Positions 1 through 63,878 of a stretch of DNA of 64,000 nucleotides are shown here, piece after piece. A program made the translations under genes and the position numbers. The notes under the pieces are model-generated. The model was given only the letters and a program-made list of their open reading frames with translations, was not told the origin of the DNA and did not search any database. How positions within the stretch are numbered: position 1 is the stretch's first letter; each line of letters starts with the position of its first letter. The stretch comes from Bdellovibrionales bacterium (GTDB lineage Bacteria > Bdellovibrionota > UBA1018 > CAIMNF01): positions 1 through 64,000 of the forward strand of contig JBEIJY010000009.1 in NCBI GenBank assembly GCA_040380025.1, read 5' to 3'.

Positions 1-107
1 CGCTCAAAAACAAAAAAGATTACTGCCGACTCTCGCGAGCGCGTGACGCGCGAAAGCGAGGCCGCACGACGCGGCTCGGAGGCAAGAATCTTTTTTGTTT
101 TTGAGCG
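1..107. repeat. Palindromic element, copy A (conserved core 24-84 enclosed by 21-bp perfect inverted arms; may extend past the window start)
   Basis: 1-21 is the exact reverse complement of 87-107; the core is the reverse complement of the cores at 5439-5497 and 63702-63760 apart from two short hairpins. Confidence 0.85.
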
Positions 108-149
108 CAATCCCACCCGACTCAAAATCAGGCACACTCCAAGGAGTTC

Positions 150-1016
150 TCAGGATTCCGCCGCCTCACGAACGACGATCGACGCGCACGCCAGACCGAA
201 GGCGCCCGTCACGAAACTCGCGTTCCCCAGAATCAGATTCCGGTTGTCGCAGTTGAAGAACTCGTTCTGCCCCTGCGGACACACACAGCGGAATCCTTTG
301 CCGTTGTCGTATTTTAATTCTTGGGGCGCCAGCGTGGGCTCCTCGGAATACACGGCCGGAATGCCGAATTCCCCGGTCTCCGGAAATCCATGCTGATCCC
401 GCAAAATCCGCCGAAGGGCTTTTGCCAGCGGGTCCACCGTCGTAAGGCCCAGGTCCTTCACCCGAATCCGCGTCGGATCCATCTTCCCGCCTGACCCGGT
501 CGAGGTGATCACCCGAATCCCCTCGTTCCGGCACTTGGCGAGCAAATGACACTTCGGGGTGACACTGTCGATGGCATCAATCACGAAATCCGGGCGCTTC
601 CCGTGCAACGAGAGCGCCTCCTCGAAAATCTCCACGCTGAATCGCTCATTGTAAAACTTGGTGATCGCAAGAACCGTCGCCTGCGGATTGATCTTGCGCA
701 GACGCTCGGCCATGACTTCGACTTTCTTCTCGCCCACCAGACCATTCAAAGAATGAATCTGCCGATTGAAGTTCGTGATGCAGATCTCGTCAAAATCGAC
801 CAAGGTGATCTTCCCCACCCCCGACCGCGCAATCGACTCGGCCGCGAACGATCCGACACCGCCGATTCCGATCACCATCACATGGGTCTGAAACAGCTTT
901 TCCATTGCGGCATCCCCCACCAGGCGCCCCATCCGGTCAAACCGTCGGTGCAGACGGTATGTGGCCATCTCGGATTCGGTCATCGGCTGAAGATTCAATT
1001 CACTCGCTTCGCTCAT
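150..1016 (-). CDS. tcdA: tRNA threonylcarbamoyladenosine dehydratase (ThiF/E1-like)
   Basis: GIGGVGS nucleotide-binding loop, DFDEICITNFNRQ, DAIDS, GSGGKMDP, DPLAKALRR and VYSEE motifs. Confidence 0.88.
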   Translation of the reverse strand: MSEASELNLQPMTESEMATYRLHRRFDRMGRLVGDAAMEKLFQTHVMVIGIGGVGSFAAESIARSGVGKITLVDFDEICITNFNRQIHSLNGLVGEKKVEVMAERLRKINPQATVLAITKFYNERFSVEIFEEALSLHGKRPDFVIDAIDSVTPKCHLLAKCRNEGIRVITSTGSGGKMDPTRIRVKDLGLTTVDPLAKALRRILRDQHGFPETGEFGIPAVYSEEPTLAPQELKYDNGKGFRCVCPQGQNEFFNCDNRNLILGNASFVTGAFGLACASIVVREAAES

Positions 1017-2900: not shown

Positions 2901-4103
2901 TCAGAGTGCACGGAGTAAAATCGAAACTCCTTGTCCACCACTAACACAGAGCGTTGCAACACCAAGTGCTCCGGACTTCCCCTTCAAGCCGTGCGCGAGC
3001 GTCACGAGAATCCTCGCCCCGGTCGCACCGATCGGATGCCCGAGTGCGATCGCACCTCCATACGGATTCAATCGCTCCATCGGAATTTGAAGCTCCCGAT
3101 TGCAGGCGAGCACCTGGGCTGCGAAGGCCTCATTCAGCTCCACCGCCTCCAAGTCTTTGACGGCGAGCCCCTGACGCGCCAAGAGCCGTCGGGTCGCCTC
3201 GACCGGACCAAGCCCCATGCGACGAGGGTCGAGCGCAATGACCTCGTAATCCAAAAGCTCCGCTTCACTGGTTGAAATCTTGTCGCTCGTCAGGTGTAAA
3301 AATGCCGCCCCGTCCGTGACCCCGCTGGCATTGCCGGCGGTCACCGTGCCGTTTGCCCGGTCGAATACCGGCGAAAGAGCTCCGAGACTCTCCAAGGTCG
3401 TCGACCCTCTGCGGTGTTCGTCGTCCCGAAGCCCCGGGGATTTGCCCTCGCCCGGAACTTCAAAGGTCTCGGCATCGAAATGCCCGGACTTCCAGGCCCG
3501 ATCGGCCCGGGTTTGCGAGAGGAGCGCGTACTCGTCTTGTTCTTGGCGTGAGATCCCGATTTCCCGGGCCAGATAAGTATCGACCGTGGCCCCCATGAGC
3601 ATGTTCGCCATCGGGCACATAAAACCGTCCTGAGTCATCCCGTCGACCATCTCGGAGTTCCCCATGCGAAGACCCCACCGCCCCTGCATCAGGTAATACG
3701 GAGTATTCGACATGCTTTCGACCCCTCCGGCGTATACCGAGCGGGCCCGTCCGAGTGCAAGCTTCTCGGCACCTGCGATCACCGAGGCCATTCCCGAGGC
3801 ACAGGCCTGATTGTAGGTAATGCCGGGAACCGTCTCGGGAAGCCCCGAAAAAATCGTCGCCTGCCGTGCGGGATTCGGTCGCGCTCCGGCCTGCCGGGCA
3901 TGCCCCAAAAACACCCACTCCGGTTGCCGGGCAAACACCTCTCCCTCCCGCGCCTCGACCCTGCGGACGCATTCCTTCAACGCCAGGGCCGCAAGCTCTC
4001 CGGCAGAAAACCGCTTCAATGACCCTCCGAACCGACCGATCGGCGTCCGGGTGGAGGCCCCTAAAAAAACAGGTTTTGGAAATGCAGAGTGGATTTTTGC
4101 CAT
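2901..4103 (-). CDS. Acetyl-CoA C-acyltransferase (thiolase)
   Basis: RTPIG, NQACASG, NEAFAAQ, GHPIGATG and LCVSGGQG motifs; start trimmed to the ATG at 4103. Confidence 0.93.
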   Translation of the reverse strand: MAKIHSAFPKPVFLGASTRTPIGRFGGSLKRFSAGELAALALKECVRRVEAREGEVFARQPEWVFLGHARQAGARPNPARQATIFSGLPETVPGITYNQACASGMASVIAGAEKLALGRARSVYAGGVESMSNTPYYLMQGRWGLRMGNSEMVDGMTQDGFMCPMANMLMGATVDTYLAREIGISRQEQDEYALLSQTRADRAWKSGHFDAETFEVPGEGKSPGLRDDEHRRGSTTLESLGALSPVFDRANGTVTAGNASGVTDGAAFLHLTSDKISTSEAELLDYEVIALDPRRMGLGPVEATRRLLARQGLAVKDLEAVELNEAFAAQVLACNRELQIPMERLNPYGGAIALGHPIGATGARILVTLAHGLKGKSGALGVATLCVSGGQGVSILLRAL

Positions 4104-4118
4104 GCTATAGTGGCTACC

Positions 4119-5360
4119 ATGCCCGAAACCACTCCTCAACCCTTCGAGCCCCGGCAAACGGATCGCAAGGTCCGCTCTCCCGGAAAACGCTGGGTGCTGG
4201 TGGTGCTCACCCTGATTTTGTTCACCACGAGCATGGACTCGATTGTTCTCATGCCGCTCGGGCCAAAGCTCATGGAGCTGTTTCAGATCACTCCAAAACA
4301 ATTCTCTTACCTTGTTTCGGCGTATTCCCTCGCCGCCGGCATGTTCGGATTTGTGGGATCGCTGTTTTTTGACCGCGTCGATCGAAAGGTGTCGCTCATC
4401 GGGTCGTATTTCGGATTTTTGATCGGAACCCTGTTTTGCGCTTACGCACCCTCGTATTCGGTCTTGCTCGTGGCACGGGCGGTTTCGGGTGCGTTCGCAG
4501 GACTCCTCTCGGGGATTTGCTACGCGATCGTGGGCGATCTTTTTCCGATCTCCGAACGAGGACTTGCGACCGGAAAACTCCTGACCGCCTATTCGCTCGC
4601 AAGCATCGTGGGTGTCCCCTTCGGACTTCACGTCTCGAACACGATCGGGTGGCATGCGACCTTCGGCCTGATCGTCGTGCTCGGAACCTTTGCGATCATT
4701 CTCGCCATTCAGGTTGTGCCACGAGGGAGCTGGAACATCCCGATCCGGCAAAGCGGGATCTTCTCGGGCATCACCGAGAACCTCCGCGACCGGAACGCGC
4801 GCTATGCTCTACTGACCACTCTCATGATGGTGCACTCCCAGTTCGTGGTGATTCCTTTCATCAGCGCGTATCTGGTTTCGAACACGGGATTCCCCGCGAT
4901 CAGCCTCCCGCAGGTTTACCTCGTCGGGGGAATTGCCACCGTATTGAGCGGAATCCTGATGGGCAAGGTCTGCGATCGCTTCGGCGCCGATCGGGTCTTC
5001 CCGATGACGGGGCTTTTGTTTTTGATCCCGATCTTTTTCCTGACGCGGCTTTCGGAATCGACTTTGATTCTGACCCTTTCCCTCACCACTCTGGTGTTCG
5101 TGCTCTCGAACTTCCGCTCGGTTCCGGCCGTCACGATGATCTCGTCCAGCATTCCACCGGAACGCCGGGGGAGCTTCCTTAGCCTGAACTCCTGCCTGCA
5201 TCAGCTGGGTGCCGCCTCTGCCACCTTCGGTGCGGGATTTCTGATCGAAGAGGGGCAAGGCGGGGCGCCGATGATCGGCTTTGCGAACACGGCGTATCTG
5301 TCGATCGCCTTCGGGATCATTGCCTATCTTGCGGGAAAGCGAATCCGGATCATTTCATGA
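4119..5360 (+). CDS. MFS transporter
   Basis: About 12 hydrophobic segments, MFS motif A (DRVDRK; DRFG), ERRG. Confidence 0.9.
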   Translation: MPETTPQPFEPRQTDRKVRSPGKRWVLVVLTLILFTTSMDSIVLMPLGPKLMELFQITPKQFSYLVSAYSLAAGMFGFVGSLFFDRVDRKVSLIGSYFGFLIGTLFCAYAPSYSVLLVARAVSGAFAGLLSGICYAIVGDLFPISERGLATGKLLTAYSLASIVGVPFGLHVSNTIGWHATFGLIVVLGTFAIILAIQVVPRGSWNIPIRQSGIFSGITENLRDRNARYALLTTLMMVHSQFVVIPFISAYLVSNTGFPAISLPQVYLVGGIATVLSGILMGKVCDRFGADRVFPMTGLLFLIPIFFLTRLSESTLILTLSLTTLVFVLSNFRSVPAVTMISSSIPPERRGSFLSLNSCLHQLGAASATFGAGFLIEEGQGGAPMIGFANTAYLSIAFGIIAYLAGKRIRIIS

Positions 5361-5379
5361 TGTTACCATTCCTCACATC

Positions 5380-5555
5380 TGTTCTTTGTGATTGGTTTGG
5401 GCTGGGGCGCGGGGGCCGGGGCGGCGGATTTTCGGTTTTGCCTCCGAGCCGGATCCTCCGGCCTCGCTTTCGCCATCCTGGCTCGCGAGAGTCGGCAAAC
5501 CAAAATTCCACCGCCCCGGCCCCCGCGCCCCAGCCCAAACCAATCACAAAAAACA
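5380..5555. repeat. Palindromic element, copy B (45-bp inverted arms with 1 mismatch plus degenerate inner arm; core 5439-5497)
   Basis: 5380-5424 pairs with 5511-5555; core 56/59 identical to copy C. Confidence 0.9.
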
Positions 5556-5594
5556 GTGCGGTTGATGTCGAACCATGACAGGAAGGAATTCACC

Positions 5595-6971
5595 ATGAAC
5601 TCATTTGTCCATTACCCTGAAGGCCATGTGCTCCTCCGGAACCTGAACAAGAAGTACCCGATCGTGAGCCACGGCAAGGGAGTCCATCTCTTCGACGAAA
5701 CAGGCAAAAAATACTTCGATGCCTCGGGCGGCGCCCTGGTTGCGACTCTGGGCCACGGCAACGAGGCGCTCGTCGCCCGCGTGGCCGAGCAAATGACAAA
5801 AGTGGCCTATGTGAACGGCATGCAGTTCACCTCGCGCCCGATGGAACAGCTCGCCAATCACCTGGCCCGTCGTGCGGCACCACTCGGTCTGGACCGCGTG
5901 ACCCTGCTGGCCTCCGGCTCAGAGGCGATCGAAGCGGCCGTGAAGTTCGCGCGTCAGCTGTGGGTCGACCGCGGATTCCCCGCAAAGCACAAGCTCATCA
6001 CGCGAACGCCGGGATACCACGGCAACACGCTCTACGCGCTCTCGGCGTCAGGAAGACCACATTACAAAAAAGTCTATGGCCCTCTTCTTTCGCCCGTGCT
6101 CACGGTCAGCACTCCCTACGCCTACCGATGCCCCGTGGTGCAAAGCAATGACCCGGACGAGATGCTCCGCGAGTATCACGAAAAAGGCGCCGAACATTAT
6201 CTTCGCGAGCTCGAGGCGCTGATCGAACGCGAGGATCCGGCCACGATCAGCGCCCTGATGCTCGAAACCATCAGCGGCTCCTCGACCGGCGGATGGATCC
6301 CCCCCAAGGGCTACCTCCACCGCGTCGAAGCCCTCTGCCGGAAGCACGACATTCTGATCATCGCAGACGAGGTGCTTTGTGGTTCCGGACGCACCGGCAA
6401 GTTCTTCGCCGCCGAACACGAGCACTTCAAGCCCGATGTCCTGGTTCTCGGAAAAGGCCTGAATGCCGGACTTATGCCGGTGGCCGCGCTCCTGACCCGG
6501 ACGCGCGACGTGAACACCATGAAAAGCGCATCGGGCGGGTTTCTGCATGCCCAGACTTACATGCAGGCACCTTCGATGGCGGCCACCGCCCTTGCCGTCG
6601 TGGAGTATCTTGACGAGCATCAGGTTCTGGCGAAGGCCGAAGCCGTATCCCGGCACTGGCAACAAGAGCTTCAGCGCCACCTTCATGCTCTTCCGTTCGT
6701 GGGGTCCGTCACCGGAATCGGCCACATGGCGGGCGTTGAGTTCGTCGAAGACAAGGCCTCGAAAAAACCGTTTCCGATCGCAAAAAAATTCGCCCAAAAA
6801 TTCGTTCAGCACGCGCAAGACCAAGGCCTGATCCTTTGGCCCAACTACGGCCAGGCCGATGGCACAAACGGGGATCTGGTCATCCTGGGCCCCTCGCTCG
6901 AGATGACCATGACTGAGGCCGACGAATGCGTGGACCGTCTGAAGCGGGCCCTCCTCGACTTCCCTCTCTGA
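5595..6971 (+). CDS. Class III PLP-dependent aminotransferase
   Basis: SGSEAIEAA, YHGNT, IADEVLCGSGRTG, PLP lysine in LGKGL; ATG at 5595 has RBS ggaagga. Confidence 0.92.
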   Translation: MNSFVHYPEGHVLLRNLNKKYPIVSHGKGVHLFDETGKKYFDASGGALVATLGHGNEALVARVAEQMTKVAYVNGMQFTSRPMEQLANHLARRAAPLGLDRVTLLASGSEAIEAAVKFARQLWVDRGFPAKHKLITRTPGYHGNTLYALSASGRPHYKKVYGPLLSPVLTVSTPYAYRCPVVQSNDPDEMLREYHEKGAEHYLRELEALIEREDPATISALMLETISGSSTGGWIPPKGYLHRVEALCRKHDILIIADEVLCGSGRTGKFFAAEHEHFKPDVLVLGKGLNAGLMPVAALLTRTRDVNTMKSASGGFLHAQTYMQAPSMAATALAVVEYLDEHQVLAKAEAVSRHWQQELQRHLHALPFVGSVTGIGHMAGVEFVEDKASKKPFPIAKKFAQKFVQHAQDQGLILWPNYGQADGTNGDLVILGPSLEMTMTEADECVDRLKRALLDFPL

Positions 6972-48187: not shown

Positions 48188-48263
48188 GTCCCCATCGTCT
48201 AGAGGCCTAGGACACCGCCTTTTCACGGCAGTAACCGGGGTTCGACTCCCCGTGGGGACGCCA
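48188..48263 (+). tRNA. tRNA-Glu(TTC)
   Basis: GTCCCCA...TGGGGAC-GCCA acceptor stem, TTC anticodon, GGTTCGACTCC T-arm. Confidence 0.95.
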
Positions 48264-48306
48264 AAAAAGGTCTGTCATCGACTCGTTCGATGGCAGACCT
48301 TTTTTT
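48264..48306 (+). terminator. Intrinsic terminator after tRNA-Glu
   Basis: aggtctgtcatcga...tcgatggcagacct followed by a T run. Confidence 0.85.
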
Positions 48307-48320
48307 GTTTCTACGGGTGC

Positions 48321-48487
48321 CGAGAACCCCGCGCGAGGGAGCGATAGCGACCGAAGCTCAGGGGTTCGTTCGCGAGACCCCAGGATGGGTCGAGCGAGCA
48401 AAGCGAGTGAAACGAGCGGTGCCTGAGCGACCGTAGGTCGCGAAGGTGGCGACCAGGATGGGAGCCACACTCCCCGTGGGGACGCCA
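48321..48487 (+). repeat. tRNA-linked element: duplicated tRNA-Glu 3' end split in the T-loop by a 100-nt hairpin-rich insert
   Basis: GGGGTTCG at 48361-48368 and ACTCCCCGTGGGGACGCCA at 48469-48487 match tRNA positions 48237-48263. Confidence 0.8.
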
Positions 48488-48528
48488 AATAAAAAAGCCT
48501 GCATCACCCGATGCGGGCTTTTTTATTT
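48488..48528 (+). terminator. Second terminator-like hairpin after the tRNA 3' duplicate
   Basis: aataaaaaagcctgcatc...gatgcgggcttttttatt. Confidence 0.8.
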
Positions 48529-48572
48529 GGCGCGCTCATGGAGGGCGAGAACCCGCGCGCCATTCCCGATCA

Positions 48573-48650
48573 CCCGTACCCTGAACTCTGTTCTGTACCC
48601 GGAATACGGTGAACAGAATTCAGGGTACAGAACAGAGTTCAGGGTGCGGG
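48573..48650. repeat. Long inverted repeat (28-bp arms, 1 mismatch), REP-like
   Basis: 48573-48600 pairs with 48623-48650. Confidence 0.8.
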
Positions 48651-63590: not shown

Positions 63591-63664
63591 GGCGCGAGGG
63601 TAAACCAAAGCGGTGGAATTGCAAAGACCACAAACTGCACCCTTTGGTTGTGCTTGGGTTGTCA

Positions 63665-63797
63665 CTCAGAGTGCGGGAGGGGCCCGATAGGATTCGGCTT
63701 TTACCTCCGAGCCGGGTCCTCCGGCCTCGCTCTCGCCATCCTGGCTCGCGAGAGTCGGCAAAAACCGAATCCTATCGGGCCCCTCCCCCACTCTGAG
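63665..63797. repeat. Palindromic element, copy C (33-bp inverted arms, 1 mismatch; core 63702-63760)
   Basis: 63665-63697 pairs with 63765-63797; core shared with copies A and B. Confidence 0.9.
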
Positions 63798-63878
63798 GAC
63801 ACCAGAAAGCACAATCAAATGGGGCAGTTCGGGGTTTTTCGCTTCCCAATTCGCCGTTTTTCCCCGAAAACCTCTGCC

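Follow-up and report, generated by a model that had tools for sequence, protein, structure and literature searches.

A 200-bp non-coding hairpin repeat, present in three copies in the stretch of DNA analysed here, is probably a type II MITE, likely moved in trans by the predicted DDE transposase of a co-resident IS1-like IS, with a stem that likely drifts by template switching and a core probably selected on its fold. The stretch, hereafter the window, comprises 64,000 nucleotides (positions 1-64,000 of JBEIJY010000009.1) from a 2.35-Mb source genome, G000, that is assembled in 53 contigs. The copies and their parts are as follows.

1-154, minus strand: copy A, truncated at the contig start; incomplete right arm at 1-23, core at 24-84, left arm at 85-154.
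1-27 and 81-107: inverted arms of copy A, 27 nt, 93%.
24-84, minus strand: core of copy A, a variant of 61 nt whose three-way junction bears two small hairpins.
130-154, minus strand: terminal repeat of copy A, decayed; overlaps the stop codon of a ThiF-family ORF (150-1016, minus strand).
5375-5560, plus strand: copy B, 186 bp, old, both terminal repeats decayed; an MFS transporter gene (4089-5360) lies on one side and a class III aminotransferase gene (5595-6971) on the other.
5379-5438, plus strand: left arm of copy B, 60 nt, 93% complementary to 5497-5556.
5439-5497, plus strand: core of copy B, 59 nt; a simple hairpin and a nested hairpin, with RTCC loops in both.
5497-5556, plus strand: right arm of copy B, 60 nt, pairing with 5379-5438.
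63631-63831, plus strand: copy C, a complete 201-bp element and the typical unit, terminal repeats intact.
63631-63655, plus strand: left terminal inverted repeat of copy C, of the family to which the ends of the IS1-like IS also belong.
63665-63705, plus strand: left variable stem of copy C, 41 nt, 93%; partner 63757-63797.
63702-63760, plus strand: core of copy C.
63757-63797, plus strand: right variable stem of copy C; partner 63665-63705.
63807-63831, minus strand: right terminal inverted repeat of copy C, 25 bp.

The original prediction described three elements with a shared core of 59-61 nt, and this core is confirmed at 24-84 (minus strand), 5439-5497 and 63702-63760; the match of 56/59 between the cores of B and C holds, copy A being the 61-nt variant. 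Near-perfect inverted arms were found for all three copies (60, 41 and 27 nt for B, C and A, each 93%). The predicted limits of 1-107, 5380-5555 and 63665-63797 are too short: copy C reaches 63631-63831; copy B, 5375-5560; and copy A extends to 154. The arms had been thought unrelated between copies, an appearance that arose because the ends of A and B are decayed; in a genome-wide alignment they are homologous arms of about 72 bp that share a 25-bp terminal motif. With a terminal matrix built without B and C, the ends of copy C score strongly (34.9 and 37.0 bits), those of B reach 5.9 and 5.2 bits, and that of A (at 154) 2.2 bits, the 99th percentile for random windows being 1.8 bits. Copies A and B thus are old, atypical members of the family.

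All three copies fold far better than their shuffled counterparts. Each beat all of 200 shuffles, with z scores of -7.0 (A) and -11.5 (C) when folded as DNA, and of -13.9 (C) and -16.6 (B) when folded as RNA. At its start, contig C32 has the core of copy A again (one mismatch within the overlap), together with an arm that is complementary to the left arm of A. In copy B, the same stretch of roughly 15 bp is gone from both the left and the right arm. Contigs assembled from four runs contain no joints across copy B; rare excision cannot be seen in such contigs. An Rfam search of the window returned two tRNAs only, and no family for the core. Elsewhere in the window (48188-48650), a long hairpin comes after tRNA-Glu, then a structured insert that closes with the tRNA 3' end repeated, then a further pair of hairpins; T-loop-type inserts of this sort also follow tRNA-Ser (C1) and, in genome G007, tRNA-Pro.

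Across the source genome the core occurs 90 times by profile search and 87 times by covariance model. Full cores with both flanks number 50 of the 90, and 35 of the 90 lie at most 110 bp from a contig end; the elements thus fragment the assembly. The terminal matrix, drawn from the outer 25 bp of the arms, has 162 matches in the genome versus 5 in shuffled DNA. These include 48 facing pairs, 35 of which enclose a core, and 33 of those 35 units measure 199-206 bp. Each arm of about 72 bp contains three zones: the 25-bp terminal repeat; an 11-bp unpaired zone; and a variable stem of 30-37 bp beside the core. Among the 33 copies, left and right terminal repeats are 0.83 identical (0.75 between copies); the unpaired zones, 0.46 (0.32 between copies); and the stems, 0.90 (0.54 between copies). 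The dispersed family that was foreseen therefore stands, whereas its arms, once tabulated, have conserved termini as in ordinary MITEs. The proposal that the family inverts the MITE pattern likewise fails: conserved terminal repeats, and target duplications of 9 bp, are found immediately beyond the limits first drawn.

Rough gene calls place 49 of the 50 copies that have genes on both sides between genes, and one inside a doubtful ORF call. By the same calls, contexts are convergent for 18 copies, divergent for 5 (background, 296 and 289), tandem for 26, and at contig ends for 40. In four copies (C22:16898, C1:133325, C4:74285 and C15:53654), the left and right arms belong to different subfamilies; these copies are products of recombination through the core or assembly chimeras. 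A cluster at C12:41569-45630 contains four elements of 188-201 bp with intact ends and diverged centres, two of which flank a transposase paralogue.

Of the 48 bounded copies, 11 are flanked by a 9-bp duplication matching in at least 7 of 9 positions, 5 of them perfect (shuffled mean, 0.28; maximum, 3), in a register chosen after a scan of 77 offsets, where direct-repeat signal fell on a single diagonal. A duplication of 11 bp was weighed as well; its outer positions mostly mismatch, and the 9-bp register was therefore retained. No clear duplication was found at the other 37 bounded copies, and none of 9 bp remains at copy C (63631-63831). Three whole units of genome G002 are absent from orthologous sites in G010, G013 or both; these empty sites are about 80% identical and offer no clean single target copy. 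The original prediction had entertained arms generated as inverted copies of target DNA, and decayed copies in relatives at first suggested the same. For the MITE family this origin is ruled out, because the arms are homologous and of fixed length and because the three empty orthologous sites hold no arm-length match. Element flanks have a weak inverted likeness (4.5 versus 3.6 matches of 13) that is not seen at IS loci.

The features of the family match those of MITEs: units shorter than 500 bp, non-coding, multi-copy and mostly intergenic; terminal repeats common to a co-resident IS; target duplication in part of the copies; and whole units that are present at a site in one genome and missing from the orthologous site in another.

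The likely mobilizer is an IS1-like DDE transposase encoded on contigs other than that of the window. Six IS ends at contig edges of G000, three left and three right, also begin with the terminal motif of the elements, and they carry the start and the end of a transposase gene. An intact ORF of 307 aa (C5:100091-101011) is immediately flanked by two core-bearing elements; a paralogue on C12, 64% identical, has a diverged element on either side. In both genes the stop codon falls inside the downstream terminal repeat. Moreover, element ends and IS ends vary together between species: the G000 element-end matrix gives the higher score for all six IS ends of G000, and the G002 matrix does so for all 12 IS ends from G002, G010 and G013. 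For the left ends of the simple IS, the fit to the element matrix is only moderate (13.6 bits).

The 307-aa protein belongs to no Pfam family. Its match to the NCBIfam IS1 profile (NF033558), at E 2e-9 and 37.5 bits, covers only residues 42-166 and does not reach the curated cut-off of 100. A sequence search of solved structures gave nothing significant. The predicted model (pLDDT 76) matches DDE transposases and integrases, best of all ISCth4 (Z 13.8, rmsd 7.4, 265 residues aligned). The protein is thus predicted, from this model, to be an IS1-like DDE transposase with an RNase H-like fold, a zinc finger and a helix-turn-helix. Residues D134, D135, E137, D213, N259 and H260 are invariant in 20 homologues, as are Cys residues. 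Homologues number 4028, and those with a named source come from Bdellovibrionales.

The transposase occurs in 16 of 41 genomes searched. In relatives it is carried by an ordinary IS, about 1 kb long, whose terminal repeats measure about 23 bp. Several relatives (G001, G006, G017 and G020) have the IS and no core matches; others (G003, G004 and G005) have cores and no IS. A 9-bp duplication is typical of IS1. Full IS loci in relatives carry a perfect 9-mer at only 1 of 18, and a 9-bp signature is therefore only putative for the IS itself. One simple copy of the IS in G000 (C40:14066-14340) starts 5 bp after tRNA-Met.

In the preferred reading, that of an IS-driven MITE, the transposase would bind the two 25-bp ends and insert the unit with a 9-bp staggered cut. 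The element, when single-stranded at a replication fork or as a transposition intermediate, would fold back, and occasional polymerase template switching (quasipalindrome correction) could then copy one arm onto the other. The Y-shaped core may be an older structured module, related to the Desulfotalea-1 motif and held by selection on its fold; most likely it would cap or stabilize the hairpin and be bound by a host factor.

The branched fold proposed at the outset for the core, a conserved three-way junction, is backed by covariation. Two-sided change is seen at 14 of 20 pairs across 32 sequences, a count above all 500 shuffles and all slid controls, although relatedness inflates such counts. 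The core model matches 20 of 116 genomes of the order. A phylum-wide model search, which scored 34-44 candidates per genome, found the core in 7 of 151 genomes, only one of them outside the order and with weak E-values; core-bearing records in a species-wide scan are mostly Bdellovibrionales or Bacteriovoracaceae. Viral contigs contain no exact match of a core pattern. At the gathering threshold and E-value level Rfam returned no family for the core, generic miRNA hairpins falling below threshold, so that it does not belong to a described family at that level. Bacillaceae-1 (RF01690) was considered and set aside, its best score being 16.8 bits against a threshold of 35.

The core is not tied to IS ends, and also caps unrelated hairpins elsewhere. 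In G000, related cores cap long hairpins that have no IS ends and unrelated arms at C26:3425-3700, C29:1-215, C1:101950-102085 and C2:80995-81090, directly after tRNA-Arg, tRNA-Pro, tRNA-Gln and a decayed tRNA-Ser. Similar tRNA-linked caps are present in other genomes of the order and in metagenome contigs. Genome G054 contains at least 31 cores in a longer family that is organized alike (from the core outward, a stem of about 37 bp, an asymmetric bulge and an outer stem) and lacks IS1-like ends. At loci L180-L199, the G054 copies form a second repeat family with the same core, arms of at least 120 bp, and a conserved asymmetric bulge about 37 bp out.

These findings lend something to a rival reading in which the core is itself the active part: it would insert, or direct a nick a set distance away, and make an inverted copy of adjacent DNA. 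One such event at an IS end would have founded the MITE, and others would have occurred at tRNA 3' ends and in unrelated repeat families. Four of nine tRNA-adjacent cases tested carry an inverted copy of the cognate tRNA end in the far arm, and one filled and empty pair (G011 versus G016) is available at tRNA-Pro; at these related cores, arms may be generated from target DNA. However, the cognate copy is absent in the other five cases; the four scores (19, 13, 13 and 12) compare with control maxima of 12, 9, 13 and 9, so that one only ties its control; and template switching alone is able to extend any hairpin into its flank. Nor was any enzyme found tied to the core, and no recurrent neighbouring gene is apparent, by eye, among the loci listed. 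We consider this reading unlikely. Its broadest form gets an equally small share of our confidence: an autonomous hairpin cap, spread across bacteria, beside which neighbouring DNA is copied inverted over a measured length, with palindromes as the outcome at tRNA ends and, where the cap lands inside an IS end, a new MITE derived from that single end. If true, MITEs would have a further, new way of arising, and an orphan motif would gain a function.

That the arms stay self-complementary while diverging between copies, as the original prediction had it, is borne out (stems 90% self-complementary, 54% alike between copies), and the change proceeds in step. Among 26 nearest-neighbour pairs, the stem contains 105 two-sided changes (93 still paired) versus 32 expected; the terminal repeat, 52 (27 paired) versus 20; and the unpaired zone, 42 (9 paired) versus 34. 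In the copy at C42:4407, the left and right arm signatures of its subfamily appear, by eye, swapped relative to the core. Template switching is the likely cause of the in-step change: it would account for the lock-step drift of the 30-37 bp beside the core, the matching deletion in the two arms of copy B, and rare flips of the core. Flank-matched orthologous pairs number 14, several of which, from tandem clusters, were set aside. Four clean pairs between G010 and G013 contain 13 one-sided changes and 1 two-sided, and arm correction is therefore at most episodic; one pair between G002 and G010 has three paired two-sided changes in place. Selection for pairing may thus also contribute.

The one-sided bias of these short-term changes also suits a second rival, in which ordinary single mutations occur and the arms stay paired only through selection for a hairpin, in RNA or DNA, that serves the host as a terminator, RNase III site or stabilizer. 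The covarying core fold speaks for selection, and stem mismatches lean to G-U on one strand (47 versus 20), although 34 of the 47 are one mismatch type and may be inherited. Against such a role, core orientation relative to transcription is unbiased by rough gene calls (16 against, 10 with), and the identical stretch is gone from both arms of copy B. Moreover, strong selection would be required at each of dozens of copies that are young and dispensable, and hairpin selection still leaves a transposase needed for mobility. We judge this explanation very unlikely.

Last, and hardly credible, is the idea that an HUH/Y1 (RAYT-type) transposase moves the unit as a REPIN-like element: an element lies just after the stop codon of both Y1-like genes in G000, and convergent contexts are favoured over divergent (18 versus 5, by rough gene calls), but both proteins lack the second His of HUH and the catalytic Tyr present in distant homologues, a core is found at only one of 30 Y1 loci (in G000) with orthologous loci lacking cores, and the terminal motif is non-palindromic, equals the IS ends and is not a REP palindrome. 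To our knowledge, HUH transposases produce no target duplication, unlike the 9-bp duplications seen here. The HUH/Y1 nuclease originally suggested as one possible trans-acting recognizer consequently yields to the DDE transposase, the element ends matching those of the IS1-like IS; a Y1-like gene does adjoin elements at two places, but as degenerate genes these were rejected as mobilizers. Within the genus, 12 of 16 genomes retain 1-3 Y1/IS200-like genes (G000 C13:34583-35182 and C25:18392-18895; loci L012-L041). Many lack HUH or the catalytic Tyr, a 10-bp motif is conserved upstream, and they possibly represent a domesticated transposase.

If the IS-driven MITE is the correct explanation, these elements constitute a large natural series (about 90 copies in G000 and dozens in relatives) for how palindromes stay perfect amid drift, with the unpaired zone as an internal control within the same series. 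It would also link an abundant, as yet unnamed IS1-like transposase family to a miniature partner, and place a motif like Desulfotalea-1 in mobile DNA, suggesting that such orphan motifs may be parts of repeats.

The core loops, with RTCC in both hairpins, are likened here to the RUCCU-loop motif class. By eye, the Y-shaped core resembles the unexplained Desulfotalea-1 motif, which is absent from Rfam, Table 1 of Weinberg et al. 2010 (PMC2864571) giving it no accession there. As described there, Desulfotalea-1 is multi-copy and about 60 nt long, with a nested and a simple hairpin, RUCC loops in both, and a nested hairpin built as stem, pyrimidine-rich internal loop, stem; all of this is shared, by eye, with the core. 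In Desulfotalea-1 the nested hairpin precedes the simple one, an order that is reversed in the core, and the core here is closed by a long stem within a MITE. The open-access literature, sampled in part, describes the loop motifs of the core nowhere beyond PMC2864571, and contains no description of the 200-bp hairpin family, including in Bdellovibrio.

The parent IS resembles the IS1 family (NF033558) and ISCth4 (IS256-type, PDB 6xg8) in the zinc-finger-like amino terminus, helix-turn-helix and RNase H-like DDE fold predicted for its protein, and IS1 also in its length of about 1 kb with terminal repeats. It differs in having a single ORF, no Pfam family and a subthreshold profile score (37.5 bits versus 100), and in lacking an invariant Glu at the expected third position, where N259 and H260 are found instead.

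Among miniature elements, the closest parallels are MITEAba12 with ISAba12, QMITE2 and Chunjie. According to excerpts of PMC6382973 and PMC10969869, these too are shorter than 500 bp, intergenic and without an ORF, share terminal repeats with a resident IS, have 9-bp duplications in a minority of copies, and form a stable stem-loop. By contrast, complementarity here reaches about 72 bp in from the ends; the inner stem varies strongly from copy to copy without losing its pairing; conservation is highest in the centre; the base composition is not AT-rich; and two parent genes use whole elements as their ends.

REPINs, in the portions of PMC3116915 and PMC3337134 that describe them, have conserved ends, a diverse spacer that keeps the hairpin, frequent compensatory changes and many intergenic copies, much as in this family. 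The MITE family is distinguished from this REPIN/RAYT system by ends that are IS terminal repeats, target duplications, a DDE partner and a conserved centre.

Quasipalindrome template-switch correction is, in excerpts of PMC5941160, a known route to perfect inverted repeats. As outlined in parts of PMC5941160, PMC7202029 and PMC8604942, it homogenizes inverted-repeat arms and can invert the spacer, and it is described for short repeats; in the MITE family, the effect stops sharply at the unpaired zone, about 37 bp from the core. A MITE with an IS parent is an already known kind of element, whereas in-step drift of a stem around a conserved folded tip is still unusual.
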